A DNA stretch of 64,000 nt from an uncultured Candidatus Binatia bacterium (GCA_964291295.2 OZ219754.1:3360001-3424000); one strand, 5' to 3'; positions 6,066 to 39,114 are shown, counted from the stretch's first letter. The notes: generated by a model not told the origin, from the letters alone. Numbers and translations are program-made.

Positions 6066-6216
6066 CCCAACCTTGCCGCCTCTGGAGTCGTGGCAGGGCA
6101 GGAATCCAGAAATCAGCATTGATATATCGTGAGCATGTCGTCGGGCGGGCCAATGTAGTGCCATAAAGTGCAAATTGGGTATCGCTGAGGGTGGCGCGCC
6201 ATGCTGCCATCCTCCC

Positions 6217-7999
6217 ATGTTCATCCGCCACACCCCTACTCGCAGTAGCAGCGAACCTTGCGTCACCCACCGCCCGGTGCGCTCCGAACGCGACGGTTCA
6301 AAGGTGCGTCAACGCAATCTGCTCAATCTCGGGCGGCACTTCGACGTGGCTCCACAGGAGTGGCCCGTGCTGTGCCGGCGCATTCAGGAGATGCTTGCCG
6401 GCCAACTTCCCCTGTCTCCGGGCTGCCCCCCGACACTCGAAAACCACGCCCAGCGCATCACCGCCCAACTCCTCGACCGTGAGCGCGTCGGCACCGCGAC
6501 CGCGTCCACAAGCCAAGAGGGCAATCTCCAAAGCGTCGATGTCGACCCCCTGGAGTTGGTTCGACCACGCTCGGTGGGCGTCGAGCACGTGGGCCATGGA
6601 CCAACTCGGCCTGCGCACCCTGCTCGACCAACTCGGCCTCGGCGCGTCGATGCACGCAGCCGCCATCGGCTCGATCATCGCGCGTATGGCGCAGAGCGCG
6701 CCACCCGGCGCTGGCTTGGCGACCGCAGCACCCTGGGTGAACTGCTCGGGGTGGAGTTCGCCACCATGGGACCGATGCGGCTGTATCGCGCCTCCGATGC
6801 CCTGATGGCCCACCGCGACGTCATCGAAAAGCATCTGTTCGACCGGGCCATGGACCTGTTCGAGATCGAACCCACCGTCACGCTCCATGATCTGACCACT
6901 CTATTCTTCGAGGGCAAGGCGCCCCTCCAACCGAAGGCCCTGCGCGGCCACTCCAAGGACAAGCGCACCGATTGCCCGCTGCTCACCCTGGGGCTCGTGC
7001 TCGACTCCGGCGGCTTCGTGCGCCGCTCCCAGGTCTTCGCCGGCAACGTCCGCGAGCACCACACCCTGGCCCGGATGCTGGATGCGCTCAACGCCCCGCG
7101 CTCCGCCCTGGTGGTGATGGACCGGGGCTTCACCACCGAAGAGCGCCTGCAGTGGCTGCACCAGCAGAGATACCCCTGCCTGGTGGTCAGCCGTGAACGC
7201 AACCGGCACTTCAACCCCCAAGCGGCACAGCGCCTCAAGACCGCTTCCAGGCATGGCGTGCAATTGCACAAGGCCTTGTCCCAGGAGGCCAGGAGGTGCG
7301 CCTGTACTGCTTCTCCAAACAACGTGCCGCCAAGGAACGCGGCATCGTCGAGCGCTTCGCCCGGCGCTTCGAGAACGCCCTCAACAAGCTCTCCGAAGGT
7401 CTCTCCCGACCCCGCATCCAAAAACGTGTGGAGCAGGTCTGGCAACGTATCGGGCGGCTCAGGGAGAGCACTCGTGGCATCGCCCAGCACTACGACATCG
7501 CACGCGACACCGATGAGTCCGGACAACGCGCCACCGCCGTGCGCTTCACCCGCCGCCCTCTCCCCGGCTCGATGATGACCCATCCGGGCGTCTACTGCCT
7601 GTGCAGCAGCGAAACCCACTGGAAGGAAGAAACCCTGTGGCGTACCTGGTTCAGGCTCACCGACATCGAAGCCGTCTTCCGCTCCCTCAAATCTGAACTC
7701 GGCCTGCGCCCCGTCTACCACCACAAGCCGCTCCGCGCCGAAGGACATCTGGTTCATTACCGTGCTCGCCTGCCAACTCGTCCAGGTCATCCGTACTCGC
7801 CTGCGTCAATCGGACGAGCACGCCAGCTGGACCACACTACGCCGCGTCCTCCATGGACAACACCGCGTCACCACCACGTGCTGATGGGCGCACCCTGCAC
7901 GTGCGCAAGGCGACCCGCGCCGAACCAACCCAGCAGGCCATCTACAAAGCCCTGCGCATCAATCCCGCTCCCGGAGGAACTCGCAAAACCGTCGTGTAA
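6217..7999 (+). pseudogene. IS1634-family transposase, multiply frameshifted
   Basis: MFIR start, HDLTT.FFEG, RGHSKDKRTDCP, VVMDRG. Continues in other frames with LTDIEAVFRSLKSELGLRPVYHHK. No matching right terminal repeat recognised. Confidence 0.85.
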
Positions 8000-8085
8000 C
8001 CAACCTTCAAACCTGTCCCCTTCCATATTCTGTCATGTGCTGCAGAGCTTGCATCTGAAACCGATACTACGACTAACCCGCAGGT

Positions 8086-8580
8086 TCACAAGCCGGAATA
8101 GGCGCGAAGCCTGGCGCGAACTTCTGTCCGGGGGAGCCGGCACCGAGGATGCGCGGCAATTCGCCGGAGCCCCTCGATCAAGGCGTCCTGGCCGAGGATT
8201 CGATGGCCTTGCAAGTGATCGAGCAGCCACAGGACACCGTGGCATTCGACATCTTCTTCGAGTGCCGCGGCGCGTAGCCGGGCGTCTCCGGAGAGCAGCG
8301 TCCATGAATATGTCTTGGCCAGGGAAAGCGCGAAGCTGTCGGGAAGCGAGAGGCTGCGGCGTATGCGACGGTACGCAAGGGCGAGGGCGACTGCGTTTCC
8401 GTCCAATTCTTCAACGCGGAGCCCCAAGTTGATGAGCATGGGGCCGCCGTGATCCTTGAGTTCGCGTTCATAGAGCAGGTCCGGCACGGCGAACTCGACC
8501 GGAAGACGAAAGACAGCTTCCAGGAACGAGCCGCGTTCAAGGTCGATGAGCACCGAGGTGTCGGAGACGAGCACCGGCAT
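8086..8580 (-). CDS. PIN-domain protein (VapC-like, type associated with COG2856 peptidases)
   Basis: MPVLVSDTSVLIDL, LSLPDSFALSLA, LLSGDARLR, HGVLWLLD; starts 5 nt after the XRE-M78 gene stop. Confidence 0.85.
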   Translation of the reverse strand: MPVLVSDTSVLIDLERGSFLEAVFRLPVEFAVPDLLYERELKDHGGPMLINLGLRVEELDGNAVALALAYRRIRRSLSLPDSFALSLAKTYSWTLLSGDARLRAAALEEDVECHGVLWLLDHLQGHRILGQDALIEGLRRIAAHPRCRLPRTEVRARLRAYSGL

Positions 8581-8585
8581 GAAGG

Positions 8586-9674
8586 TCAAACACTGACGGG
8601 AGCGGCTTTCATGGTCGGTGGTTCGTCCATGAGCCGGACGAGCTCGTGGACCGAGTGTCCGAGCAGTTCGGCGGCCTTGGACTCCGAGATGGCACCTTCC
8701 GCCAAGGCGCGGAAGCATAGACGACCGAAACGCCTGGGCTCTTCGCCGTCCATCGCCCACGGCTCCCTGTAGGGTGGACTGCGCCAGCCGCGACGCTTGA
8801 ATTCGTTGAACAGGCGCTGGAACAGAGGGCTACCGAAGATCCCCAGATCCTTGCAGCGATAGGTGAGGGCCTGCACGCTGACCCCGAAAATCCGCTTGAG
8901 GTCGAACAGCTCGCTCCAGCCAATGGACTGGCGATGCCTGCCTACCTCGGCACGCAGCGTTTCGGCTGGCATGAGGAAGGCACCCGCAAATCGGTGAGCG
9001 GCCCTCTCGTCATCAATTTTCGGCGCGACGTTCAAAACCATGTGCCCGAGTTCGTGGGCGACGGTGAATCGCTGGCGCTCTCCCCAGTCCCGTCGATTGA
9101 CGACGATCACCGACGCGATGCTCCGGTCTTCACGGCGCACGCCGGCCGTGAGACCGTCCATGTTGGAAAGAGGCATCGAAAGAACCTTGATGCCGCGTTC
9201 CTCCAGAAGCTCGACCAGATTCGGTATTGGATCGAGTCCGAGTCCCCAGTGACCACGGAGGCCGTGCGCGGCCTGTTCCGCCTCCACCAAGTCGTGGAGC
9301 AAAGGCCAAGGGGCGTCGCGCGGCATGTCCCAAGCGACAGTATGCAGACCGAGAATTCCCTCCACCGTGAGATAGCGCTCCAGCAGATCGAGCACCTTGG
9401 CCTCGACCTGAGCTTCTTCGCGCTTGCTCGTCAGCCGCTTCCGTCGGAAGTCGACGTCTTCCAGGGCGATGACGCTGTCGCTGGCCAAGTAATCCACGGA
9501 TACGCCGAGAGCGCTCGCGAGCGCAATGAGGACACCCGAGCTCGGCATCGACTCATCGCGCTCGTACTTGCTGATCGCCTGCGCCGTGACGCGGTTGTCG
9601 ATTCTGGATTCAAGATCGCGGAGCGATAGACCTTCCGCACGCCGTGCTATCCTGATGCGTTGCCCTATTGACAT
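8586..9674 (-). CDS. XRE HTH fused to ImmA/IrrE (M78) metallopeptidase
   Basis: N-terminal HTH (RIRIARRAEGLSL...AISKYE), RQRFTVAHELGH zincin motif, FAGAFLMP. Confidence 0.93.
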   Translation of the reverse strand: MSIGQRIRIARRAEGLSLRDLESRIDNRVTAQAISKYERDESMPSSGVLIALASALGVSVDYLASDSVIALEDVDFRRKRLTSKREEAQVEAKVLDLLERYLTVEGILGLHTVAWDMPRDAPWPLLHDLVEAEQAAHGLRGHWGLGLDPIPNLVELLEERGIKVLSMPLSNMDGLTAGVRREDRSIASVIVVNRRDWGERQRFTVAHELGHMVLNVAPKIDDERAAHRFAGAFLMPAETLRAEVGRHRQSIGWSELFDLKRIFGVSVQALTYRCKDLGIFGSPLFQRLFNEFKRRGWRSPPYREPWAMDGEEPRRFGRLCFRALAEGAISESKAAELLGHSVHELVRLMDEPPTMKAAPVSV

Positions 9675-9728
9675 TTTCTCCCACCTCGCATGGTTGACAT
9701 TCTCTCATCTATCGACAATACTTGTCAA
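9668..9728. promoter_or_regulatory. Overlapping divergent sigma70-like promoters/operators
   Basis: TTGACA at 9694-9699 (+) with AATACT 17 nt later; TTGACA on the minus strand at 9723-9728; direct repeat TTGACATT(T/C)TCTC at 9668 and 9694. Confidence 0.55.
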
Positions 9729-9752
9729 GCACAGAGGCTTGAAACGCCTCAG

Positions 9753-9852
9753 GGAAGGTCCGAACAAGGCGACGGAGCAACAGTGGCCTGCTTACAACCC
9801 ATTGGTTTTTCCTGATTCAGCCCCATCGAACTCGGGGGTGTCCAGACCTTCC
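9753..9852. mobile_element. IS5-like MITE, about 100 bp, family B copy 1
   Basis: Ends GGAAGGTCCGAACA...TGTCCAGACCTTCC resemble IS5 TIRs, followed by TTAA; homologous copy at 38742-38840. Confidence 0.75.
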
Positions 9853-9920
9853 TTAAGGGCGACTCGTGTCGTGGAACGCACCTGTTCTCGAATCTGTTCC
9901 GGTTATCGGAGGTTGAGACC

Positions 9921-11096
9921 ATGACTGCATCCCTTTCGTTTTTTCCCGTTGGTAATGGCGACATGACGCTTGTCGAAACCGAGGAGGGCTTCAGGATATT
10001 GATCGACATGAACATCCGGGCCGCCGCGGACGACCCGGACGACGACACACCGGACGTGGCGAAGGAGCTCCGGGACAGGCTGACCCGGGATTCGCAGGAT
10101 CGGCTCCATGTGGATGCGTTGCTCGTCAGCCACCCTGATGAGGACCACTGCCGGGGGCTGTGCAAGCACTTTCACCTGGGTCCGCCGGACGAATGGTCAA
10201 AGCGTACCGACAAGATACTGATCCGGGAGGTCTGGTCGTCGCCAATGGTCTTCCGGCGTGCCTCGCGACAGGACCCGCTGTGCGACGATGCGAAGGCGTT
10301 CAACAGCGAGGCGCGGCGCAGGGTGCGCAAGCACCGTGCGTCGCGGCGGCCGGCCGGCGATGGCGACAGGATCCTCATTCTCGGCGAGGATGAAGGCGGC
10401 AAGACAGACGATCTGCAGGACATTCTGGTACGTGTGGACGACGAATTCTCACACATCAATGGTCGATATGATGGATCGATGCATGCCCGGCTGCTCGCGC
10501 CGCTGCCGGCGGCGGATGTCGATGACGAGGAGGTTCTATCAAAGAACAACTCGAGCACGATCTTGCGATTCTCGTTGAAGGGTGGCGGGATCAGGGATAA
10601 GTGCCGGTTCCTGACAGGGGGCGACGCGGAGGTCGCGATATGGGAGGAACTGTGGGGCCGTCACGGCCGGCAGGCCGACCGGTTGTCCTACTACGACATC
10701 CTGCTGTGCCCGCATCATTGCTCCTGGCACAGTCTGTCGCACTACAGTTGGGGCGAGTTGCGCAACAAGGGCGCAGTCTCGGAGGAGGCCCGGAATGCCC
10801 TGTCGCAGGCAAGGGATGGCGCAACGATCGTGGCGAGCAGCAATCCGATTGAGGACGATGACAACGATCCGCCCTGCATAGGCGCCAAGCAGACATACCA
10901 CGCCATCGCAAAGGGCGCAGCCGGCTCCTTCGAATGCGTCGGAGAGCGACCGTCGAAGAAGTCGCCCGGTGTGATGAAATTCGAGATCGGCGCGCACGGC
11001 GCACGCTTGAGGACCGCGCTCATGGCGGCGCCCGCAGTCTTCGGGGCCGGAGCCGTCGGGCGGCAGGCACTGGCGCACGGCAACGGTACGTCATGA
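9921..11096 (+). CDS. Metallo-beta-lactamase-fold hydrolase (ComEC/Rec2-like) with flexible C-terminal tail
   Basis: FFPVGNGD, SHPDEDHC, GGDAE, PHHCS motifs; tail GAGAVGRQALAHGNGTS; stop overlaps the next ATG (ATGA). Confidence 0.85.
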   Translation: MTASLSFFPVGNGDMTLVETEEGFRILIDMNIRAAADDPDDDTPDVAKELRDRLTRDSQDRLHVDALLVSHPDEDHCRGLCKHFHLGPPDEWSKRTDKILIREVWSSPMVFRRASRQDPLCDDAKAFNSEARRRVRKHRASRRPAGDGDRILILGEDEGGKTDDLQDILVRVDDEFSHINGRYDGSMHARLLAPLPAADVDDEEVLSKNNSSTILRFSLKGGGIRDKCRFLTGGDAEVAIWEELWGRHGRQADRLSYYDILLCPHHCSWHSLSHYSWGELRNKGAVSEEARNALSQARDGATIVASSNPIEDDDNDPPCIGAKQTYHAIAKGAAGSFECVGERPSKKSPGVMKFEIGAHGARLRTALMAAPAVFGAGAVGRQALAHGNGTS

Positions 11097-13474
11097 CCCG
11101 CTCTCGGCCCAATGACGCGATCCGGCGTGCCCTTGCTCTGATCTCCGAACATCCCAACGTCCATGGAATGGATGCACCGCTGTATGACGCGACGAGGGGC
11201 GCGGCCACTGTCGACGTGACCTTCAGGGTCAACCTGCCGAGCGAGTGGCGGCGGCAGGGAGAGAGCCCCTCGGGCGTCAGGAGTCGGGAGGTCGTGCGGT
11301 TCGACTTTTCCGCCGTGTATCCCTTGTATCCACCAGCCTTGTCGCTTCGCGAGGACTTCACCAGAAATCTGCCGCACATGCAGCCGTGGATGACGGACGG
11401 ACGGCCCGTACCGTGCATTTGCGACGGCGATACGGCCGAACTGCTCCACCGGGACGGACTGGTGGGCATCCTCAACCAGATCTCCCTGTGGCTGGAAAAT
11501 GCCGCACTCGGCAAGCTTATCGACCCGGAGCAGGGGTGGGAGCCGGTCCGCCGCGACTCGTTGCACGATGTCGTTATTGCCGACGCAGGGCATTTACGGG
11601 GCTTGGTCAACCGGCAGGGCGACTGGTGATTCCTGAAGGTCAGCTACCTGAAGAGCGCCGCGCTGGATGGAAGCCATCTCTTTCATGGCCAAGTCTTGAA
11701 CGAAGTGATCAGAGTAAATCCAAAGTCGATCGGACAGCACTTTTGTGAGGCAGAACTGAATGGTCATGCCGGACTGAGCTGGGGCATTTCGCTGGCACTG
11801 GTTGCCTGGCCGGGGAAGCGACCGTCGGGCGAGGTCATTGTCAGCGACAGCTATTTCCCGGAGACGGTCGAGACCATCGACGGCATGAAGAAACGCGCGG
11901 CGATGTACGGTTGCGGCCGAGAGCTGGACGACGGGCTGCGCTGGCTCAGAAGGCGTCTGTCGGGCTGCGCGAAAGCGGGGCCGTTTCCGATGCCGGTAAT
12001 CATCCTGGTTCGCCGGCCGTTCCACCTGATCGGAAGCACGAGCCCGATTGAACTCTGCCCGTACATGGTCGAAGTCCATTTGCCCGGTCTGTTCAGTGAC
12101 GGAGGGGCCACGGCCGTACGCGCGGCGGCGCACCGCCACACAATATCCCGGCCGCTTCTCGCCGGAATGGCCGGATGGCCGTCAACGACCGATCAACCGC
12201 GCTGGACGCTCGTGGGCGCAGGCAGCCTCGGCTCGAAGATCGCCCTTCATCTCACCCGCGCGGGCAATGGCCCTGATGTGGTGGTCGATCGGTCGGTGAT
12301 GAGCCCGCACAACGCGGCCCGGCATGCGCTCGTTCCGGTAGCAGGGGACATGCAGATACTCTGGATGGATAGCAAGGCACGGAGTCTATCCCGTGCCTTG
12401 CGCGGCCTGGACCAGGACGCGACGGCGCTGTTGGCGGACGCGGTCACGATGGCGATGGACCGGCAGGACACACAAGGGGCATGGTCGGAAAAGTCCTGGG
12501 CCGTGGTGAATGCCACGGCGTCGCTTGCCGTCCGGGAAGCGATCGGCGCGAGCAAGTGCATCCGTTCGCGGGTGGTCGAGGCATCACTGTTTGCCGGAGG
12601 AGCTCTGGGGGTCATCACAGTCGAGGGACCAAGACGCAATCCGGGCACAACAGATCTGATGGCGGAATTCTACGCAGTGCTGCAGGAGGAGCCGGAGCTC
12701 TCATCCATCGTCTTCGACAACGGACAGGCACTGGCGAGACAGGACACCGGTCACGGATGCGGCTCGCTGACGCTGGCCATGTCGGATGGCCGGTTGTCTT
12801 TGTTTGCTGCGGGGATAGCCGAGTACCTGCTCTGCAGGCAGAAGGATGGACTCCCCGATGAGTGCGGAGAGGTCGTGATCGGGCGGATGTCGGACAACGG
12901 TTTGGGTGTGGCATGGCGGGCAAAGCGAATCCCACCTGTCACCGTTGTGGAAACGAAGAACGGCTCACCCTGGCACATTCATTTGCACCATCGGGCACTG
13001 TCCAAGATGCAGGCGGAGGCCGGACGCTGGCCGAATGCGGAGACTGGGGGCGTGCTCATGGGCCGGCTCTCGGAGGTTTCGCAAGTTGCCCATATCGTGG
13101 ATGTGTTGGACGCTCCAGAGGACAGCGAGCGCTCGTCCGACGAATTCATCCTCGGCAAGCAAGGCCTTGGACGAAGCCTGGAGGACTACTCAACGTCCGT
13201 CGGCTGGTCGCTCTACTGCTTGGGAACGTGGCACAGCCATCTGTCTCCGGGCGGTCCATCGCTCACGGATCGGGCGACGGCAAGAGCAGTGTCGCTGGCG
13301 CGCCTGGCACCCTCCATATTCGTGATCAGGACGCCAACGGGGTTCGAAGCGTTGACGGCGGATGGGGATGATTCCATGGTTCCGGGTGCGGATATGCTCG
13401 CAGGCGGTGAACGAGGACGTGGGAGCCGGGCCTCGCCCGTGCCGTCCGCGACGCCTGTCACTGGTGGGAGGTAG
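11093..13474 (+). CDS. E2-E1(ThiF)-JAB fusion (Cap2/Cap3-like) with one in-frame TGA at 11627-11629; possible pseudogene
   Basis: ORFs 10934-11629 and 11696-13474 share a frame (66-nt gap). E2: YPLYPP..LREDF..NLPH...PVPC. E1: VGAGSLGS, HNAARH, GHGCGS. JAB: ETGGVLMG, GTWHSH..PS.TD. Confidence 0.85.
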
Positions 13475-13479
13475 ACCTC

Positions 13480-14022
13480 ATGGACGCGTTGCTGGACAAA
13501 CTCTCCTCCTACAACATCTTCAACTACCTTCTTCCAGGCAGCCTGTTTGCAGTGATTGCGGATGCCGTGACCGGGGCCGAGTACCGCCTTGTCCAGGAAG
13601 ACATCGTAGTCGGGCTCTTTCTCTACTACTTCATCGGTTTGGTGGTCAGTCGAACAGGATCCCTGATCGTCGAGCCCATTCTGAAGGCAGTCGGATTCGT
13701 TAGGTTCGTCGAATACAGCAAATTTGTCGAAGCCTCAAGGGCCGATCCGAAGATCAACGTGCTTTCCGAAACGAACAACATGTACCGTACTCTATTCGCG
13801 CTCTTTCTTCTTCTGATACTTGTCGCTTTGTTTGACCAATTTGCCTCCTTCCTTCCTTGGCTCGTGGGCGGGTTGTCGTATATCGTCTGGACTGCTCTCC
13901 TGATAATGTTCGTGTTCGCTTATCGAAAACAGACCGACTACATCGTCAGGCGAGTCAATGAAGCCATCCATGAGGAAAAGGCCGGACCCGACGTAGGGGA
14001 TGGGAGTCAGAAGCTGTCCTGA
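13480..14022 (+). CDS. Predicted multi-pass membrane protein, last gene of the MBL/E2-E1-JAB operon
   Basis: GGAGG RBS; about 4 hydrophobic segments (YNIFNYLLPGSLF, LFLYYFIGLVVSR, LFALFLLLILVAL, IVWTALLIMFVFAYRKQ); more T-rich than the flanks. Confidence 0.8.
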   Translation: MDALLDKLSSYNIFNYLLPGSLFAVIADAVTGAEYRLVQEDIVVGLFLYYFIGLVVSRTGSLIVEPILKAVGFVRFVEYSKFVEASRADPKINVLSETNNMYRTLFALFLLLILVALFDQFASFLPWLVGGLSYIVWTALLIMFVFAYRKQTDYIVRRVNEAIHEEKAGPDVGDGSQKLS

Positions 14023-14327: not shown

Positions 14328-14505
14328 CCAGGAGTCTGCGCCGCACAAAATTTTCGTGGGACAGATATCCACCAGAATCCCGCTTGGCGCCCAATTCATG
14401 TCCAATAATGGGACAAGGCTACACGTTTCTGGCATTTTGGACGAAAATCCGGTCATGCTCTCCCACCGGTTGCATCCCGAAGCGTCCTGCGGCACAGGCT
14501 CCTAG
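14328..14505. mobile_element. MITE, 178 bp, family A copy 1
   Basis: TIRs GAGTCTGCGCCGCA / TGCGGCACAGGCTC, flanked by CCAG and CTAG; close to copy 2 at 36384-36561; terminal CTAG contains the amidohydrolase stop. Confidence 0.85.
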
Positions 14506-15527
14506 CAGGTCACGCCGTACAGCCGCTTGGCCGAATCGGCCAGCAGCCACTTCTTCTCCTCGGGAGACAGATCTTCCCGGCGGCCGAGCTGGTCGATGTT
14601 CTCGGGGAACTCCATGTCCCAGTGCGGAAAGTCGGAAGCGTAGTAAAGCACGTCCGGGCTCAGGAACCTGGCGGTCTCGCCGACAAAGGGCTCGTAGTCC
14701 TCGGCGTGAAAGTAGATGTTGCCGCCGCGCACGTACTCGCTGGGTCGCTTCTTGCAGAGCGGCGCTTCCGCCTGGCCGCGCTTCTCCCATTCCTCGTCCA
14801 TGCGCCCGGCCCAGTAGGGTGCCCACGAGCAGCCGGCCTCCATGAACGCCACCCGAAGATCGGGGAAGCGGTCCATCACGCCGCGAAAGATCATGCTGGT
14901 CATCTGCATCATCTGGGCGAAGGCGTGGGACAGGGTGTGCACCTCGATGAACCGGTCGAATCCGTCGGCGCCGAAATACTGCGGCCCGCGCACGGTGGCG
15001 TGCACGCCCACCATGCAGTCGAGCCTCTCTGCCTCCTCGTAGATGGGCCAGTAGTCCTGGTGTCCCAACGGCAGCCGCAGCCCCACGGCCGGCAGCATGA
15101 GTCCGGTGAGGTGCAACTCCCGGACCGCCCGGCGCAACTCCTTGACCGCCTCGGGCACGTCCTGAAAGGACACCAGCGCCACCCCCTTGAGCCTGGGGCT
15201 GACCTTCTGGAACTCTTCGGAGACAAAGTCGTTCCAGGCCTTGCAGAGGGCCACCGCAAGGTCCGGCTCGCGGATCCAGCCGATGCCCAGGCCGCCCGTC
15301 GGATAGAGGTAGGCGGTGGTGAGCCCGCCGTCGTCCATGGCGTCAAGCCAGGTTCTGGCGTCACACGCCGTCGTCCCCAGCGTCCCGCCGATGGAGCGGT
15401 CCCAGTTGTCTATCGGGTAGAGGGTGGCGGTGCGGTCCACCCAGGGCGCCTCCATGTATTTCTTGAGCTGCGCGTCGGTCTCGGTGATGTGTCCGTCCGC
15501 ATCAATGACTTCGACGTCTCTGGCCAT
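14502..15527 (-). CDS. Amidohydrolase_2 family protein
   Basis: GAGGAGG RBS; IDADGHI, YWPIYEEAE, VAFMEAGCSW, YASDFPHWD. Confidence 0.9.
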   Translation of the reverse strand: MARDVEVIDADGHITETDAQLKKYMEAPWVDRTATLYPIDNWDRSIGGTLGTTACDARTWLDAMDDGGLTTAYLYPTGGLGIGWIREPDLAVALCKAWNDFVSEEFQKVSPRLKGVALVSFQDVPEAVKELRRAVRELHLTGLMLPAVGLRLPLGHQDYWPIYEEAERLDCMVGVHATVRGPQYFGADGFDRFIEVHTLSHAFAQMMQMTSMIFRGVMDRFPDLRVAFMEAGCSWAPYWAGRMDEEWEKRGQAEAPLCKKRPSEYVRGGNIYFHAEDYEPFVGETARFLSPDVLYYASDFPHWDMEFPENIDQLGRREDLSPEEKKWLLADSAKRLYGVTC

Positions 15528-15765
15528 GATTCCTCCTCGACGGATTGCCGAAAACCGGCGCAAGCTGCGCCCGATGGCCCTGCCGGCCACCCTTCCGTGA
15601 ACACGCCGGGAGACTCTACGGCCACCCGCGCCGCGCTGTCAACCGTGCTGGAAAGGCCAGGGACGACAACGTGTTCGTCCCGAAGTCCCGGCCGGTGCCG
15701 GACCCGGACGGTTACGGACTGGCCGTCGCGATCCCGCGGCGCTGACCGAAGAACGCCAATTTGTT

Positions 15766-15782
15766 ATATCGATATTCGATAT
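15766..15782. promoter_or_regulatory. Palindromic operator candidate ATATCGA-TAT-TCGATAT
   Basis: Perfect 7-bp inverted repeat in an AT-rich patch 35 nt upstream of the ATPase start, overlapping a TGTTATAT -10-like element. Confidence 0.5.
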
Positions 15783-15817
15783 CGGAGCCGTGCCGACCCG
15801 ACAGCGGGAGACCCGCA

Positions 15818-17029
15818 ATGTCCGACCGCCGCCTGCTTACGCGCATTGCGTTGCGAAACTACAAGAGCATCGGCGCCTGCGATGTGAAGCCGGCGCAGCT
15901 GTCCTTCCTCGTCGGGCCGAACGGCTCCGGCAAAAGCAACTTCCTTGATGCACTCCGATTCACCGCGGAATCCCTCGGTTACTCCATGGACCACGCGCTG
16001 CGCGACCGGGGCGGCATCGGAGATGTCCGCCGGCGCTCGGGCGGCCACCCGACCCATTTCGGCATTCGGCTCGAATTCGCACTTGAGGAATGGACCGGCT
16101 ATTACGCTTTCACGGTCGGGGCCATGAAGCGGGGCGGCTATGAGATTCAGAAGGAAGAATGCCGCGCCGCACCGCGAAACGCCCTCGGCGAGCACCGTTA
16201 CCGAGTCGAGCGGGGCCGTGTGGTCGAAAGCACCTTCGCGACTCCTCCCATTGCCGCCGCCGACCGGTTGTATCTCGTCACGGTCTCGGGTCTGGAGCCC
16301 TTCCGCGCGGTTTACGAATCTCTGGCAACCACCGGTTTCTACAACCTGAGCCCGGAGGCGATCCGGGACCTCCAGCCGCCCGACCCGGGAAAGCTTCTGG
16401 AGCGGGACGGGAAAAATCTGGCCAGCGTCCTGCACAACCTTTCCGAGAACGCTCCCCACTTCAAACAAAGAATCGAGGACTATCTCGGAAAGGTGGTTCC
16501 CGGGATTGCCGGCGTCGAGCGGCGCGCCTTGGGGCCAAAGGAAACCCTGGCATTCCGCCAGAAGGTTCGAGGGGCGCGACATCCCTGGCAGTTCCTTGCC
16601 GGGAACATGTCGGATGGCACACTGCGCGCCCTCGGCATTCTGGTGGCGCTGTTCCAGAGCCGCGCGCAGGACCATGGGAGGCGCCGGCTCGTCGGCATCG
16701 AAGAGCCGGAGATCGCGCTGCATCCCGCCGCCGCCGGCGTGCTGGTGGACAGCCTCCGGGACGCCGCCGAGCATACCCAGATCCTTGTCACCAGCCACAG
16801 CCCGGAACTGCTCGACAATTCGGACATATCGGCGGACCAGATCATCGCGGTCACGGCGGAAAGCGGCGAAAGCCGCATGGGACCGCTGGACGAGACCGGA
16901 CGGTCGGCGTTGAGAGATCGTCTTTACACAGCCGGCGAATTGCTCAGGCTGAACCAACTCGACCCGGTCCCGTCGCTCTCAAGACCGGGTGTCCGCCAAA
17001 TGGACCTGTTCGGCCCGGTGGCCGAATGA
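15818..17029 (+). CDS. ABC-type (AAA_21-like) ATPase
   Basis: LRNYKSI, VGPNGSGKSN, MSDGTLR, GIEEPEIALHP, VTSHSPELL. Confidence 0.9.
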   Translation: MSDRRLLTRIALRNYKSIGACDVKPAQLSFLVGPNGSGKSNFLDALRFTAESLGYSMDHALRDRGGIGDVRRRSGGHPTHFGIRLEFALEEWTGYYAFTVGAMKRGGYEIQKEECRAAPRNALGEHRYRVERGRVVESTFATPPIAAADRLYLVTVSGLEPFRAVYESLATTGFYNLSPEAIRDLQPPDPGKLLERDGKNLASVLHNLSENAPHFKQRIEDYLGKVVPGIAGVERRALGPKETLAFRQKVRGARHPWQFLAGNMSDGTLRALGILVALFQSRAQDHGRRRLVGIEEPEIALHPAAAGVLVDSLRDAAEHTQILVTSHSPELLDNSDISADQIIAVTAESGESRMGPLDETGRSALRDRLYTAGELLRLNQLDPVPSLSRPGVRQMDLFGPVAE

Positions 17030-17628
17030 TGCGCAGGACCGTCCTGGCCATTGTGGAAGGACATGGCGAGGTGTTCGCGCTGCCGGAGTTGATCCGGCGC
17101 ATCGCCCGTGAGGTGTCGCCGGATGTTGTTGTCGAGACGCCCCGGCCCTTCCGGCTGCCGCGCAACAGGATGGTGAAAGATGGCGAATTGGAACGCGCCG
17201 TCACGCTTGCTTCGCGCAAGGCGGGGACCGGCGGATGCATTCTGATATTGCTCGACGCCGACCGCGACTGCCCGGCGGAGCTCGCCCCGCGGCTTCTTGC
17301 CCGCGCTGTGGCGGCCTGTCCGGGCCGGGACATCCGTGCGGTGGTGGCCACGACGGAATACGAAGCCTGGTTCCTGGCAGCCGCCCGCTCGCTCGCCGGG
17401 AAGAACGACCTCGACGAAACCCTTGAGCCGCCGGATAGTCCCGAAGCAATCCGGGACGCCAAGGGCTGGCTCAGCGCCAGAATGCCGCGTGGCCGGAGTT
17501 ATCGGGCAACGCTCCACCAGGCAGCGCTCACGAAAACCTTCGACATGACGGCCGCGCGTCGGCTTTCCCCTTCCTTCGATAAATTGTGGCGGGACATCGG
17601 AAGCCTTCTCCGGCCGCCGCCAGCGTAA
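17026..17628 (+). CDS. DUF4276-like TOPRIM-fold protein
   Basis: ATGA overlap with the ATPase; AIVEGHGE, ILLDADRDCP, EYEAWFLAA, SPSFDKL. Confidence 0.8.
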   Translation: MMRRTVLAIVEGHGEVFALPELIRRIAREVSPDVVVETPRPFRLPRNRMVKDGELERAVTLASRKAGTGGCILILLDADRDCPAELAPRLLARAVAACPGRDIRAVVATTEYEAWFLAAARSLAGKNDLDETLEPPDSPEAIRDAKGWLSARMPRGRSYRATLHQAALTKTFDMTAARRLSPSFDKLWRDIGSLLRPPPA

Positions 17629-37632: not shown

Positions 37633-38775
37633 ATGCCACGCGAGACCACGCGATATGTCATCATAGGCGCCGGTTTCGCCGGCGCCGCCACCGCCTGCCA
37701 CCTGGCTTTCCAGGGAAAGCGGCAGATCGTCATCCTGGAGCAGGAACCCGTACCCGGCTTCCATTCCTCGGGCCGCAACGCCGGCTTCATACGTCAGGTC
37801 CTGGCGGAGCCCTCGGTGGCCGACCTGGCCGCGGAATCGGCCCGGTTCATCCGCAAGCCCCCGCCCGCTTGGCCCGTGCCGGTCTCGTACGACCCCATTG
37901 GCTGCCTGATCCTCGGACGCGGTGAAAAGTGGCAAGCCCTGCAGGAGGACGCGGACCTGGCGCGCCGGCGCGGCATCGAGGTCGAGTGCTGGTCGCCGGA
38001 GAGGACTCGTGCAGCCGTGCCCCTCATCCGGGACGCCGCCCTGGACGGAGCCCTGTGGTGCGTCTCGGACGGCGTCATCGACATCCACGCGCTGCTGTCG
38101 GGCTATCTCAAGACGGCCCAGGGCGCCGGCGCCGTCATCCGGTACGGCGCGACCGTGAACGAGGTGCGGGTACGACACGGGCGGGTACAGGGGGTCGCCA
38201 CCGCCCAGGGCTTTTTCGCAGCCGACGTGGTGGTCAACGCCGCAGGCCCCTGGGCCGGCCCGGTGGGCGTCATGGCCGGGGCCGCGCCCATTGCTTTTCA
38301 TCCACGTCGCCGGCACCTGTTCGTCACGCCGCCGCTGGACTGGGTCCAGCCGGACTGGCCCTTCGTCCTCAACGTCTCCGACGAGGTCTACTTCCAACCG
38401 AGTTCCGGCGGGCTGATGCTGTGCCCTTGCGATGAAGACGATGTGCCGCCGTGCGACCCGCCGACGCAACCGGAGGCCCTGGAGCTTCTGGCCGAGAAGC
38501 TGGCGGCCGCCTACCCCCATTTCCCCGACGTTCCCGTCGGGCGCTGCTGGGCCGGGCTGCGGACATTCACGGACGACAATCGGTTCGTCATCGGCTGGGA
38601 TCCCGGGGTGGAGGGGTTCTTCTGGGTCGCCGGACTCGCGGGCCACGGCGTCACCACCAGCGCCGCTGTGGGCTCCCTGGCCGCCCGGCTGCTTCTCGGA
38701 GCGGACGCGGACCCGAACTTCTCACCCGCGCGTTTCGGTTACGAAGGTCCGAACAAGGCGATGGCGCGACATTGA
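37633..38775 (+). CDS. FAD-dependent oxidoreductase (DAO/sarcosine oxidase family)
   Basis: IIGAGFAG, SSGRNAG, VVNAAGPWA, WAGLRTFT.D, AGLAGHG; the last ~11 codons lie in a MITE. Confidence 0.9.
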   Translation: MPRETTRYVIIGAGFAGAATACHLAFQGKRQIVILEQEPVPGFHSSGRNAGFIRQVLAEPSVADLAAESARFIRKPPPAWPVPVSYDPIGCLILGRGEKWQALQEDADLARRRGIEVECWSPERTRAAVPLIRDAALDGALWCVSDGVIDIHALLSGYLKTAQGAGAVIRYGATVNEVRVRHGRVQGVATAQGFFAADVVVNAAGPWAGPVGVMAGAAPIAFHPRRRHLFVTPPLDWVQPDWPFVLNVSDEVYFQPSSGGLMLCPCDEDDVPPCDPPTQPEALELLAEKLAAAYPHFPDVPVGRCWAGLRTFTDDNRFVIGWDPGVEGFFWVAGLAGHGVTTSAAVGSLAARLLLGADADPNFSPARFGYEGPNKAMARH

Positions 38776-38840
38776 GCCACTCGCAACCTGCGGATTGTAT
38801 TGATTCAGCCCCAGCGAATTGGGGGTTGTTCAGACCTTCC
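38742..38840. mobile_element. IS5-like MITE, about 99 bp, family B copy 2
   Basis: CGAAGGTCCGAACAA...TTGTTCAGACCTTCC; shares internal TGATTCAGCCCCA with copy 1. Confidence 0.75.
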
Positions 38841-39114
38841 TTGGCGACCCCGGTGTCGCGGCAGCCTTCCGCGACGGCGGTGCGAGTTCCACCGATCCGG
38901 TCAGTCCGGCCGGTACACCATCGCCGCTCCTTCCTGCGGGCACACGCCGGTGCCTTCGGCACCGCCCCGGCCACGACCATCGGCGCCAACCCCGCCCTCG
39001 ACGGCAACGTCGCAGCCTGCTCGGCGCCGAATCCGCATCTCCAGAGCGTGGGATGATCCGGTGCGCCCGGCGGCAGGCCTTGACTACCACAAGAACGTGT
39101 AGTAGGTATGACAC

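Follow-up and report, generated by a model that had tools for sequence, protein, structure and literature searches.

A stop-interrupted copy of the anti-phage 6A-MBL system with a third, membrane-protein gene in a Candidatus Binatia genome

The locus described here lies between positions 8,086 and 14,022 of a stretch of 64,000 nucleotides (nt) from an uncultured Candidatus Binatia bacterium (GCA_964291295.2, OZ219754.1:3360001-3424000). This whole stretch is called the window, and coordinates count from its first letter. Two minus-strand genes, for a PIN-domain protein and for an XRE-type helix-turn-helix (HTH) protein fused to an M78 peptidase, face three plus-strand genes, which encode a metallo-beta-lactamase (MBL)-fold enzyme, an E2-E1-JAB protein (cap2_3) and a four-helix membrane protein. 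The genes and features are as follows.

8086..8580, minus strand: PIN-domain protein, 164 amino acids (aa), second gene of the XRE-M78 operon (Pfam PIN).
8586..9674, minus strand: fused XRE HTH and M78 (ImmA/IrrE) zinc-peptidase, 362 aa, with an HELGH motif (Pfam, PADLOC).
9691..9731, no strand: palindrome TTGACA-N23-TGTCAA, a candidate operator (inverted repeat I2, promoter-like sites).
9747..9858, no strand: dispersed repeat of about 110 nt with 20-nt terminal inverted repeats (inverted repeat I1, matches in the genome).
9921..11096, plus strand: MBL-fold enzyme of the 6A-MBL type, 391 aa (NF058524, AlphaFold 2 (AF2) model, Foldseek).
11093..13474, plus strand: cap2_3, an E2-E1-JAB triple module of 793 codons with one interruption (NF058523, Pfam, PADLOC).
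11627..11629, plus strand: in-frame TGA at codon 179 of cap2_3, read as a nonsense mutation (homologue alignment, contigs from public runs).
13480..14022, plus strand: four-helix membrane protein of the PADLOC family PDC-M48A, 180 aa, third gene of the operon (PDLC04670, AF2 model).

The three plus-strand genes are as closely coupled as the initial annotation of this locus had proposed. The TGA of the MBL gene (11094-11096) shares bases with the ATG of cap2_3 (11093) in an ATGA overlap at 11093-11096, and the cap2_3 stop codon (TAG, 13472-13474) is followed after five bases by the ATG (13480) of the membrane-protein open reading frame (ORF). The first two genes match NCBIfam equivalog models of the anti-phage 6A-MBL system. 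The MBL reaches 417.4 bits with NF058524 ("anti-phage 6A-MBL system MBL-fold protein"; cut-off 220, E 4.5e-125), the match spanning residues 7-360 and profile positions 1-346 of 346. In a search of the genome, cap2_3 read across the stop reaches 562 bits with NF058523 ("anti-phage 6A-MBL system cap2_3 protein"; cut-off 320). Its two parts match this model separately (6.8e-35 and 1.8e-128), the part after the stop scoring 429.9 bits by itself. In none of 14 control reference genomes was the NCBIfam 6A-MBL cut-off exceeded.

The same architecture appears in Table 1, row 6a, of Iyer, Burroughs and Aravind (2006), from which the label "6a" derives and which, in its available text, describes the row as "usually two genes". 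Later papers, in the parts available, count 6A-MBL among the known anti-jumbo-phage defences and credit it to van den Berg et al. (2024), and the accessible portion of a 2024 preprint mentions "MBL pathways" that use a fused E2-E1 protein and conjugate their enzyme to unknown targets (PMC11601596). MBL operons go unmentioned in the 2022 Cap2 preprint. Because the equivalog models are passed and the architecture was published in 2006, the locus is, on family models, a copy of a known and named anti-phage system and not an undescribed one. The initial annotation had singled it out as the best candidate for an under-described system in the window, which does not stand; its core reading, an anti-phage ubiquitin-like conjugation operon related to Cap2 and Cap3 of CBASS (cyclic-oligonucleotide-based anti-phage signalling systems), agrees with the family models. 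It had also seen neither a cyclase nor a ubiquitin-like (Ubl) gene, and none is found among the genes of the locus with Pfam, PADLOC, NCBIfam and the ORF map: no match to a cyclase (CD-NTase) was obtained for any of the six locus proteins in the three collections, the genes leave no room between them for an extra ORF, and no ubiquitin-like (beta-grasp) gene occurs between 8086 and 14022. Among related loci, a sample of 76 collected with two cap2_3 peptide patterns, 68 of 69 have the MBL gene immediately before cap2_3.

The E2, E1/ThiF and JAB motifs reported earlier for a single frame (PVPC; GAGSLG and GCGS; HSH..PS.TD) were all found in cap2_3. The E2 part (11093-11626) contains H95 and C108 (PVPC). 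In read-through numbering, the E1 part contains GAGSLGSK at 375-382 and GHGCGS with C556, and the JAB part contains ETGG with E650 and the HSH...S..D signature at 714-726 (H714, H716, S723, D726). H95, C108, GAGSLGSK, C556, E650, H714, H716, S723 and D726 are invariant in 19 aligned sequences. Pfam matches, far stronger than expected by chance like those of the facing genes, are Prok-E2_A (2e-31), ThiF (2.4e-7) and Prok-JAB (2.5e-7), and PADLOC returns its CBASS models for E1-E2 (1.1e-14) and JAB (3.1e-14). Compared on its own with Protein Data Bank (PDB) sequences, the E2 part gave a chance-level match only. A read-through query with X at the stop retrieved 586 proteins at E <= 0.001, many of them intact 793-aa homologues at 74-81% identity.

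The frame at 11093..13474 contains exactly one in-frame stop. When codon 179 was aligned in 18 intact homologues (750-796 aa, 56-81% identity), the residue was Arg in 14, Lys in two, Cys in one and Ser in one. Contigs X1 and X2 from public runs, which may represent the source sample, carry T at 11627, and the TGA base is on that account taken as real. Contig X3, from a sister strain of the same study (97.5% identical; 38 differences over 1501 nt and no indels), carries C at this position and reads CGA. Selenocysteine insertion or other recoding at the TGA was considered and rejected in view of these four homologue residues (Arg, Lys, Cys, Ser) and of the CGA in the sister strain. Since the sister strain reads CGA, the comparison identifies the stop as a recent C-to-T (CGA to TGA) nonsense mutation and not a design feature. 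With its TGA, the window cap2_3 is not the single uninterrupted polypeptide that characterises 6A-MBL; judged from these alignments, it is a broken member of that system and not of a different family.

The MBL operon carries the dispersed repeat (9747..9858) in its 5' leader, and none of the seven related intergenic regions compared contains this stretch. The repeat has 29 matches in its own genome (this copy counted) at 69-85% identity, mostly of about 100 nt, with a few partial ones of 38-46 nt, and it resembles a MITE (miniature inverted-repeat transposable element) or a REP (repetitive extragenic palindromic) element. Another copy occurs in the window at about 38743-38848. Because a nonsense codon in cap2_3 is combined with a repeat element in the leader, the window copy is very probably inactive, that is, dead or crippled.

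It is nevertheless conceivable, if improbable, that the TGA does not inactivate the system. An E2 protein of 178 aa could act in trans with an E1-JAB protein re-initiated at TTG 11696 or GTG 11705, or UGA could be read through at a low level. The cap2_3 frame indeed has no other lesion and keeps all catalytic residues; the break falls in the linker past E2, the Pfam E2 match ending at residue 165; E1 and E2 are separate in other bacterial conjugation systems such as Bil (PMC11601596, available text); and G020, a 6A-MBL copy from the same genus, also has one internal stop (TAG). However, an unbroken cap2_3 ORF is the rule, seen in 63 of 65 full-length related loci, the CGA of the sister strain marks the stop as recent rather than designed, and re-initiation would require weak TTG or GTG codons and cost about 22-25 conserved residues including the invariant Y185. 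The leader has in addition received the repeat insertion.

Lesions were seen elsewhere too. An insertion sequence (IS) transposase is inserted within cap2_3 of locus L108 (4795-5742) and another between the XRE-M78 and PIN genes of locus L030 (4521-5525, minus strand), and stops also occur in L027 and L046. Together with the stops of G020 and the window, these insertions suggest that 6A-MBL-type operons are often inactivated.

The product of the gene at 9921 scores 17.4 bits with Pfam Lactamase_B, under the cut-off of 22.7. In spite of this, its match to NF058524, its AlphaFold model and its Foldseek matches make it clearly an MBL-fold protein as modelled, and the metallohydrolase call made earlier is borne out by the same three lines. 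Its metal motif, H71-P-D-E-D75-H76 with D235 and H265/H266, is invariant at H71, D75, H76, D235, H265 and H266 in an alignment of 55 MBL sequences. The AF2 model has a mean predicted local distance difference test (pLDDT) score of 87.5 and a predicted template-modelling (pTM) score of 0.88. Its best Foldseek match is the beta-lactamase-like domain of ComEC (9ic4, E 2.9e-12), followed by the phosphorylcholine esterase Pce, then PNGM-1, then nucleases of the RNase J and INTS11 type. ComEC, a membrane DNA-uptake protein, is also the sole PDB sequence match of the MBL profile (E 0.0011). Among PADLOC models, LmuA, of the nuclease type, matches the MBL N-terminus at 1e-9, and the PDC-M48B models reach only 3.3e-4 and 5.2e-4, likewise with the N-terminus only. 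Relatives of the MBL are found on 270 plasmid records.

Residues 367-391 of the MBL form a tail that is disordered in the AF2 model (pLDDT below 50) and ends in ...GRQALAH386-G387 followed by four extra residues, NGTS. A survey of 68 MBL ORFs from related loci revealed an exact His-Gly C-terminus in 56, typically ...GRQPLxHG, and His-Gly with one to six further residues in 10; the frame runs on or is broken in two. H386 and G387 are invariant in the 55 aligned sequences, and four residues after the His-Gly are common to the window, its closest clade (L020-L023) and L044. An invariant terminal glycine on a flexible tail, sometimes masked, is what should be expected of a substrate for E1 adenylation and JAB processing. 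The initial annotation had proposed that the MBL is the modifier, and the invariant terminal His-Gly on a disordered tail supports this directly from sequence; the MBL itself is likely the conjugated moiety. In L018 and L019, the tail of the 6A-type MBL ends in ...HTYG plus three residues.

The third gene product matches PDLC04670 (PDC-M48A) at E 1.2e-61. Its AF2 model (pLDDT 78.5) is all-helical with four long hydrophobic helices, in keeping with the small multi-pass membrane protein noticed before. Orthologues occupy the same position in L020-L023, and in this close clade K69, K81 and K150 are conserved in cytoplasm-like segments. An ESM Atlas query with the protein returned only unnamed, "hypothetical" clusters; the family comprises 1863 cluster representatives, all unnamed or "hypothetical" bar one stray annotation. 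In 63 of the 71 related loci with at least 700 nt past the JAB end, a gene for a multi-pass membrane protein directly follows cap2_3 on the same strand. Of these loci, 47 encode a protein of family I (about 250 aa), 12 one of family II (about 211 aa) and four one of family III (about 175 aa), the family of the window protein, which matches PDC-M48A. Homology among the three was tried with hhalign and rejected (46% for III against I, at the N-terminus only, and 8% and 10%), and they are treated as analogous. Seven representatives of families I and II had no Pfam or NCBIfam match, and with PADLOC only L083 had weak ones: its family-I-like protein (10187-10846) matches Csx27 at E 3.1e-4 and PDC-M48A at E 0.0089. 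Csx27 is a membrane protein associated with type VI-B CRISPR. None of the third-gene proteins tried has an NCBIfam model.

The third position is also filled by other proteins. In loci of the same genus it is taken by a patatin-like phospholipase, encoded by a separate gene in two loci and fused in two others as an E2-E1-JAB-patatin protein of 1136 aa (L018 8124-11534, L019 7585-10995). These same-genus copies were considered as orthologues and rejected, being only 22-31% identical to the window proteins; because of this low identity, the window copy is taken to be a separate acquisition. A 274-aa ORF without a Pfam match lies further upstream of the MBL in L018 and L019 and has weak tblastn similarity to ORFs beside other 6A-MBL loci, and L019 also has a separate JAB gene. 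In a Methylocystis plasmid, a four-transmembrane (TM) protein in third position is followed by a Tle1-like lipase. All five further loci from the phylum sample have a gene for a predicted 2-4 TM protein beside the operon, in one case upstream of the MBL. MBLs resembling PDC-M48B follow the membrane gene in several 6A-MBL loci.

A second PDC-M48A copy, 69% identical, exists in the window's genome. There it lies beside a PDC-M48B MBL (2.7e-65), with no cap2_3 at the locus.

L099 (G000:C1:2401000-2418000), second defence locus of the same genome: ORFs 8293-8817 (plus strand), 8951-9454 (plus strand), 9666-10445 (minus strand) and 11507-13699 (minus strand).

The gene set of L099 comprises PDC-M48A, an unnamed hydrophobic protein of 167 aa with internal repeats, the PDC-M48B MBL and a DUF1156/HmaB-like DNA methyltransferase (2.5e-22). 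PDC-M48A was present in two of the 401 genomes of the phylum sample.

The suggestion that the membrane protein is an effector or a target gains from the constancy of its position and the exchange with patatin, and the role itself stays a proposal. Another division of labour, with a nuclease MBL as the only effector and the membrane protein as the lysine-bearing target or anchor to which it is conjugated and which holds it at the membrane where phage DNA enters, would agree with ComEC as the nearest solved fold, with the RNase J and INTS11-type nucleases next in the Foldseek list, with the LmuA match and with the conserved lysines K69, K81 and K150. However, the same position is taken by patatin, including as cap2_3 fusions, and is joined by a Tle1-like lipase, which are effectors and not anchors, and the membrane families are swapped without detectable homology; this alternative is considered unlikely. 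A complex prediction for the MBL (alignment A2) and the membrane protein (A6) gave an ipSAE interface score of 0.00 in both runs, below the mark, and was used neither for nor against an interaction.

The facing genes form an operon of their own. Pfam identifies Peptidase_M78 (4.6e-20) and HTH_3 (1.8e-13) in the XRE-M78 protein; its PADLOC matches are RmrA (1.5e-52, full length), capP (2.3e-18) and capH (1.6e-7), and its NCBIfam match, below cut-off, is the spr1629-family repressor/antitoxin (9.4e-27). It is likely, from these similarities, a cleavable repressor and/or an antitoxin. The PIN gene most likely starts at ATG 8580, five bases past the XRE-M78 stop, rather than at GTG 8760, to which the longest ORF extends: the 164-aa form matches Pfam PIN at E 9.1e-6 (26.7 bits against a cut-off of 23.6) and the longer form at 2.6e-5. 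No PADLOC model, RmrT included, matched the PIN protein at E 0.01. Homologues of it follow XRE-M78 in L020, L022, L023, L024, L026, L044 and L079, and a diverged PIN-like ORF of roughly 170 aa does so in L027, L030, L033, L034, L036, L049 and L061.

The intergenic region between the MBL and XRE-M78 genes is 246 nt long. Two promoter-like sites with 10 of 12 matches each, at 9694-9722 (plus) and 9728-9699 (minus), lie face to face, and each takes its -35 box from one half of the palindrome. In all eight aligned intergenic regions, the TTGACA and TGTCAA positions show little or no variation. By tblastn, XRE-M78 lies divergently upstream in 19 of 76 loci. Of these matches, 15 cover most of the protein (seven loci at 59-89% identity with a recognisable PIN, and a distant set of eight at 28-32%) and four are short or partial. 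At least seven loci of the distant set have the PIN-like ORF of roughly 170 aa. In L106, the XRE-M78/PIN pair is found on the downstream side, in convergent orientation. Plasmid 6A-MBL operons have separate neighbouring genes for HTH and ImmA/IrrE proteins in place of the fused one. The accessible text of PMC10557695 describes capH and capP as likewise divergent at Bil operons.

Control of the operon by a stress-cleavable repressor with a PIN nuclease, as first proposed, thus remains plausible on sequence grounds. The conserved palindrome and the recurrent linkage favour it, and the presence of the pair in only a minority of loci and the RmrA match speak against it. The XRE-M78/PIN pair could instead be an independent RosmerTA-like module, toxin-antitoxin or defensive, that travels beside 6A-MBL without regulating it. 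The full-length RmrA match, the "repressor/antitoxin" family match in NCBIfam, the tight two-gene operon and the presence in only 19 loci, one other (L106) having the pair in a different arrangement, all point that way. This is nonetheless judged rather unlikely. Both divergent promoters draw their -35 boxes from the palindrome, which is kept in 8/8 loci, and the divergent layout recurs with two very different versions of the pair (28-32% and 59-89% identity). Moreover, split HTH and ImmA/IrrE regulators stand beside other 6A-MBL operons, capH and capP have the same divergent position at Bil operons in the text available (PMC10557695), and the PIN protein matches no PADLOC model. A toxin-antitoxin reading is in any case compatible with the regulatory one.

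The G+C content of the locus is 0.60-0.63, lower than that of its flanks. Downstream, 1.7 kb from the 6A-MBL operon, are the two genes of a HEC-01 system, which overlap by 4 nt.

15761-17029, plus strand: HEC-01A, AAA ATPase (E 1.2e-159).
17026-17628, plus strand: HEC-01B, DUF4276-like (E 1e-74).

The 6A-MBL locus sits in a defence island. An ORF of 362 aa on the minus strand between 6A-MBL and HEC-01 (14502-15590) has no PADLOC match and looks like a metabolic, amidohydrolase-type gene. On the other side (6175-8432, plus strand), several long ORFs overlap in different frames and resemble transposase sequence; the island seems to be bordered here by an IS remnant with frameshifts. No tRNA was found in positions 1-30000 of the window. 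Among genomes, cap2_3 exceeds the cut-off in five of 61 related ones and in five of the 401 of the phylum sample, the window's genome being in both counts.

In comparison with 6A-MBL as known, the window has the MBL directly upstream of a single E2-E1-JAB gene on the same strand, with both proteins above the equivalog cut-offs and no Ubl or cyclase gene. It differs in the TGA that interrupts cap2_3, in the tightly coupled PDC-M48A third gene, where the available 2006 description has "usually two genes", and in the facing operon of fused XRE-M78 and PIN. With type II CBASS it shares the matches to the PADLOC CBASS models for E1-E2 and JAB, a non-Ubl enzyme whose disordered C-terminal tail makes it the likely conjugated moiety, and the order of enzyme, conjugation machinery and variable membrane-directed third gene. 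CBASS effectors include patatin and TM proteins. Unlike type II CBASS, however, the window has no CD-NTase, the Cap2 and Cap3 parts are fused in one polypeptide, the enzyme has a hydrolase fold with no second messenger evident, and similarity to solved Cap2 is marginal.

The link to PDC-M48 is the membrane protein, which is a PDC-M48A, a true A and B pair being present elsewhere in the genome; yet the window MBL is of the 6A type, and PDC-M48 at the second locus lacks E2-E1-JAB. Bil (BilABCD) and Bub use the same E1, E2 and JAB chemistry in anti-phage defence, and Bil has divergent upstream regulators of the capH/capP type (PMC10557695, available text). They have, according to the accessible part of PMC11601596, a Ubl of their own, with E1 and E2 as individual proteins, whereas the window has no Ubl gene. 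CapH/CapP and RmrA share with the window the combination of XRE HTH and M78 peptidase; in contrast to CapH/CapP and RosmerTA, the window has the domains fused (362 aa), and the PIN gene that comes after them has no match among PADLOC models, RmrT included.

These likenesses allow a mechanism to be proposed for an intact copy. XRE-M78 would bind the palindrome over both promoters, and its own peptidase would remove it on a phage or stress signal; derepression by cleavage is suggested by homology with CapH/CapP. JAB would then trim NGTS after His386-Gly387, the His-Gly and the extensions being visible in the sequences and the cleavage proposed from them. By homology with Cap2 and Cap3, E1 would adenylate Gly387 and the MBL would pass from C556 to C108 of E2 and on to a target lysine, a step that JAB could reverse. 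Conjugation would prime or localise the MBL, which may act as a nuclease- or phosphodiesterase-type enzyme, as the observed fold similarity to ComEC suggests. The membrane protein may act as an effector that kills or disrupts the membrane, or else serve the conjugated MBL as docking site or target.

The preferred interpretation is that the locus is a horizontally acquired 6A-MBL copy in a defence island, with a third, membrane-protein gene, broken in this genome and working when intact by the mechanism proposed above; a probability of about 0.8 is assigned to it. Several observations weigh against parts of it. Past the TGA the cap2_3 frame is otherwise intact, and read-through, or E2 and E1-JAB acting as separate pieces, could leave some residual function. 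The cap2_3 profile matched no PDB chain at E 1e-3, and the E1-JAB part resembles solved Cap2 chains marginally (E 0.03-0.08), in the nucleotide-binding loop only. No membrane gene was found in eight of the 71 loci, the third gene of the Acinetobacter plasmid encodes a second MBL (PDC-M48B, E 7e-153) and not a membrane protein, and, because the three membrane families are not demonstrably homologous, a common role for them is argued from position only. The XRE-M78/PIN pair is not in most loci. Finally, the two cap2_3 peptide patterns used to collect the 76 loci bias the sample towards relatives of the window copy.

A broader reading is possible, though it falls short of being probable. 6A-MBL could be a CBASS-like system of three parts, in which an MBL and an exchangeable membrane-directed effector form the core and the fused Cap2/Cap3 protein is an add-on acting through the terminal His-Gly. 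The effector would be one of three unrelated membrane families or a patatin, or would be joined by a Tle1-like lipase. The core could stand alone as PDC-M48, and cap2_3 would parallel the Cap2 and Cap3 that turn type I CBASS into type II. In some clades, that of the window included, JAB would first have to unmask the His-Gly, and conjugation would attach the enzyme to the membrane effector or place it beside that effector.

The His-Gly handle, the third gene and the link to PDC-M48 go beyond the available 6A-MBL text, in which no mechanism was seen, and could matter to the field for that reason; van den Berg et al. (2024), the primary paper, or its supplements may have reported them before. 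An invariant terminal His-Gly on a disordered tail would provide a precise and mutable conjugation site, and the short extensions past the glycine lead one to expect pre-processing by JAB. Candidate effectors or targets are provided by the third gene, which is nearly constant and encodes a membrane protein that can be exchanged for patatin, and the shared membrane protein ties PDC-M48, an orphan PADLOC candidate, to 6A-MBL. The sister strain with its intact allele and the broken window copy form a natural on/off pair. If the three-part reading is true, a hydrolase, and not a nucleotide cyclase, can head a conjugation-primed abortive-infection pathway.

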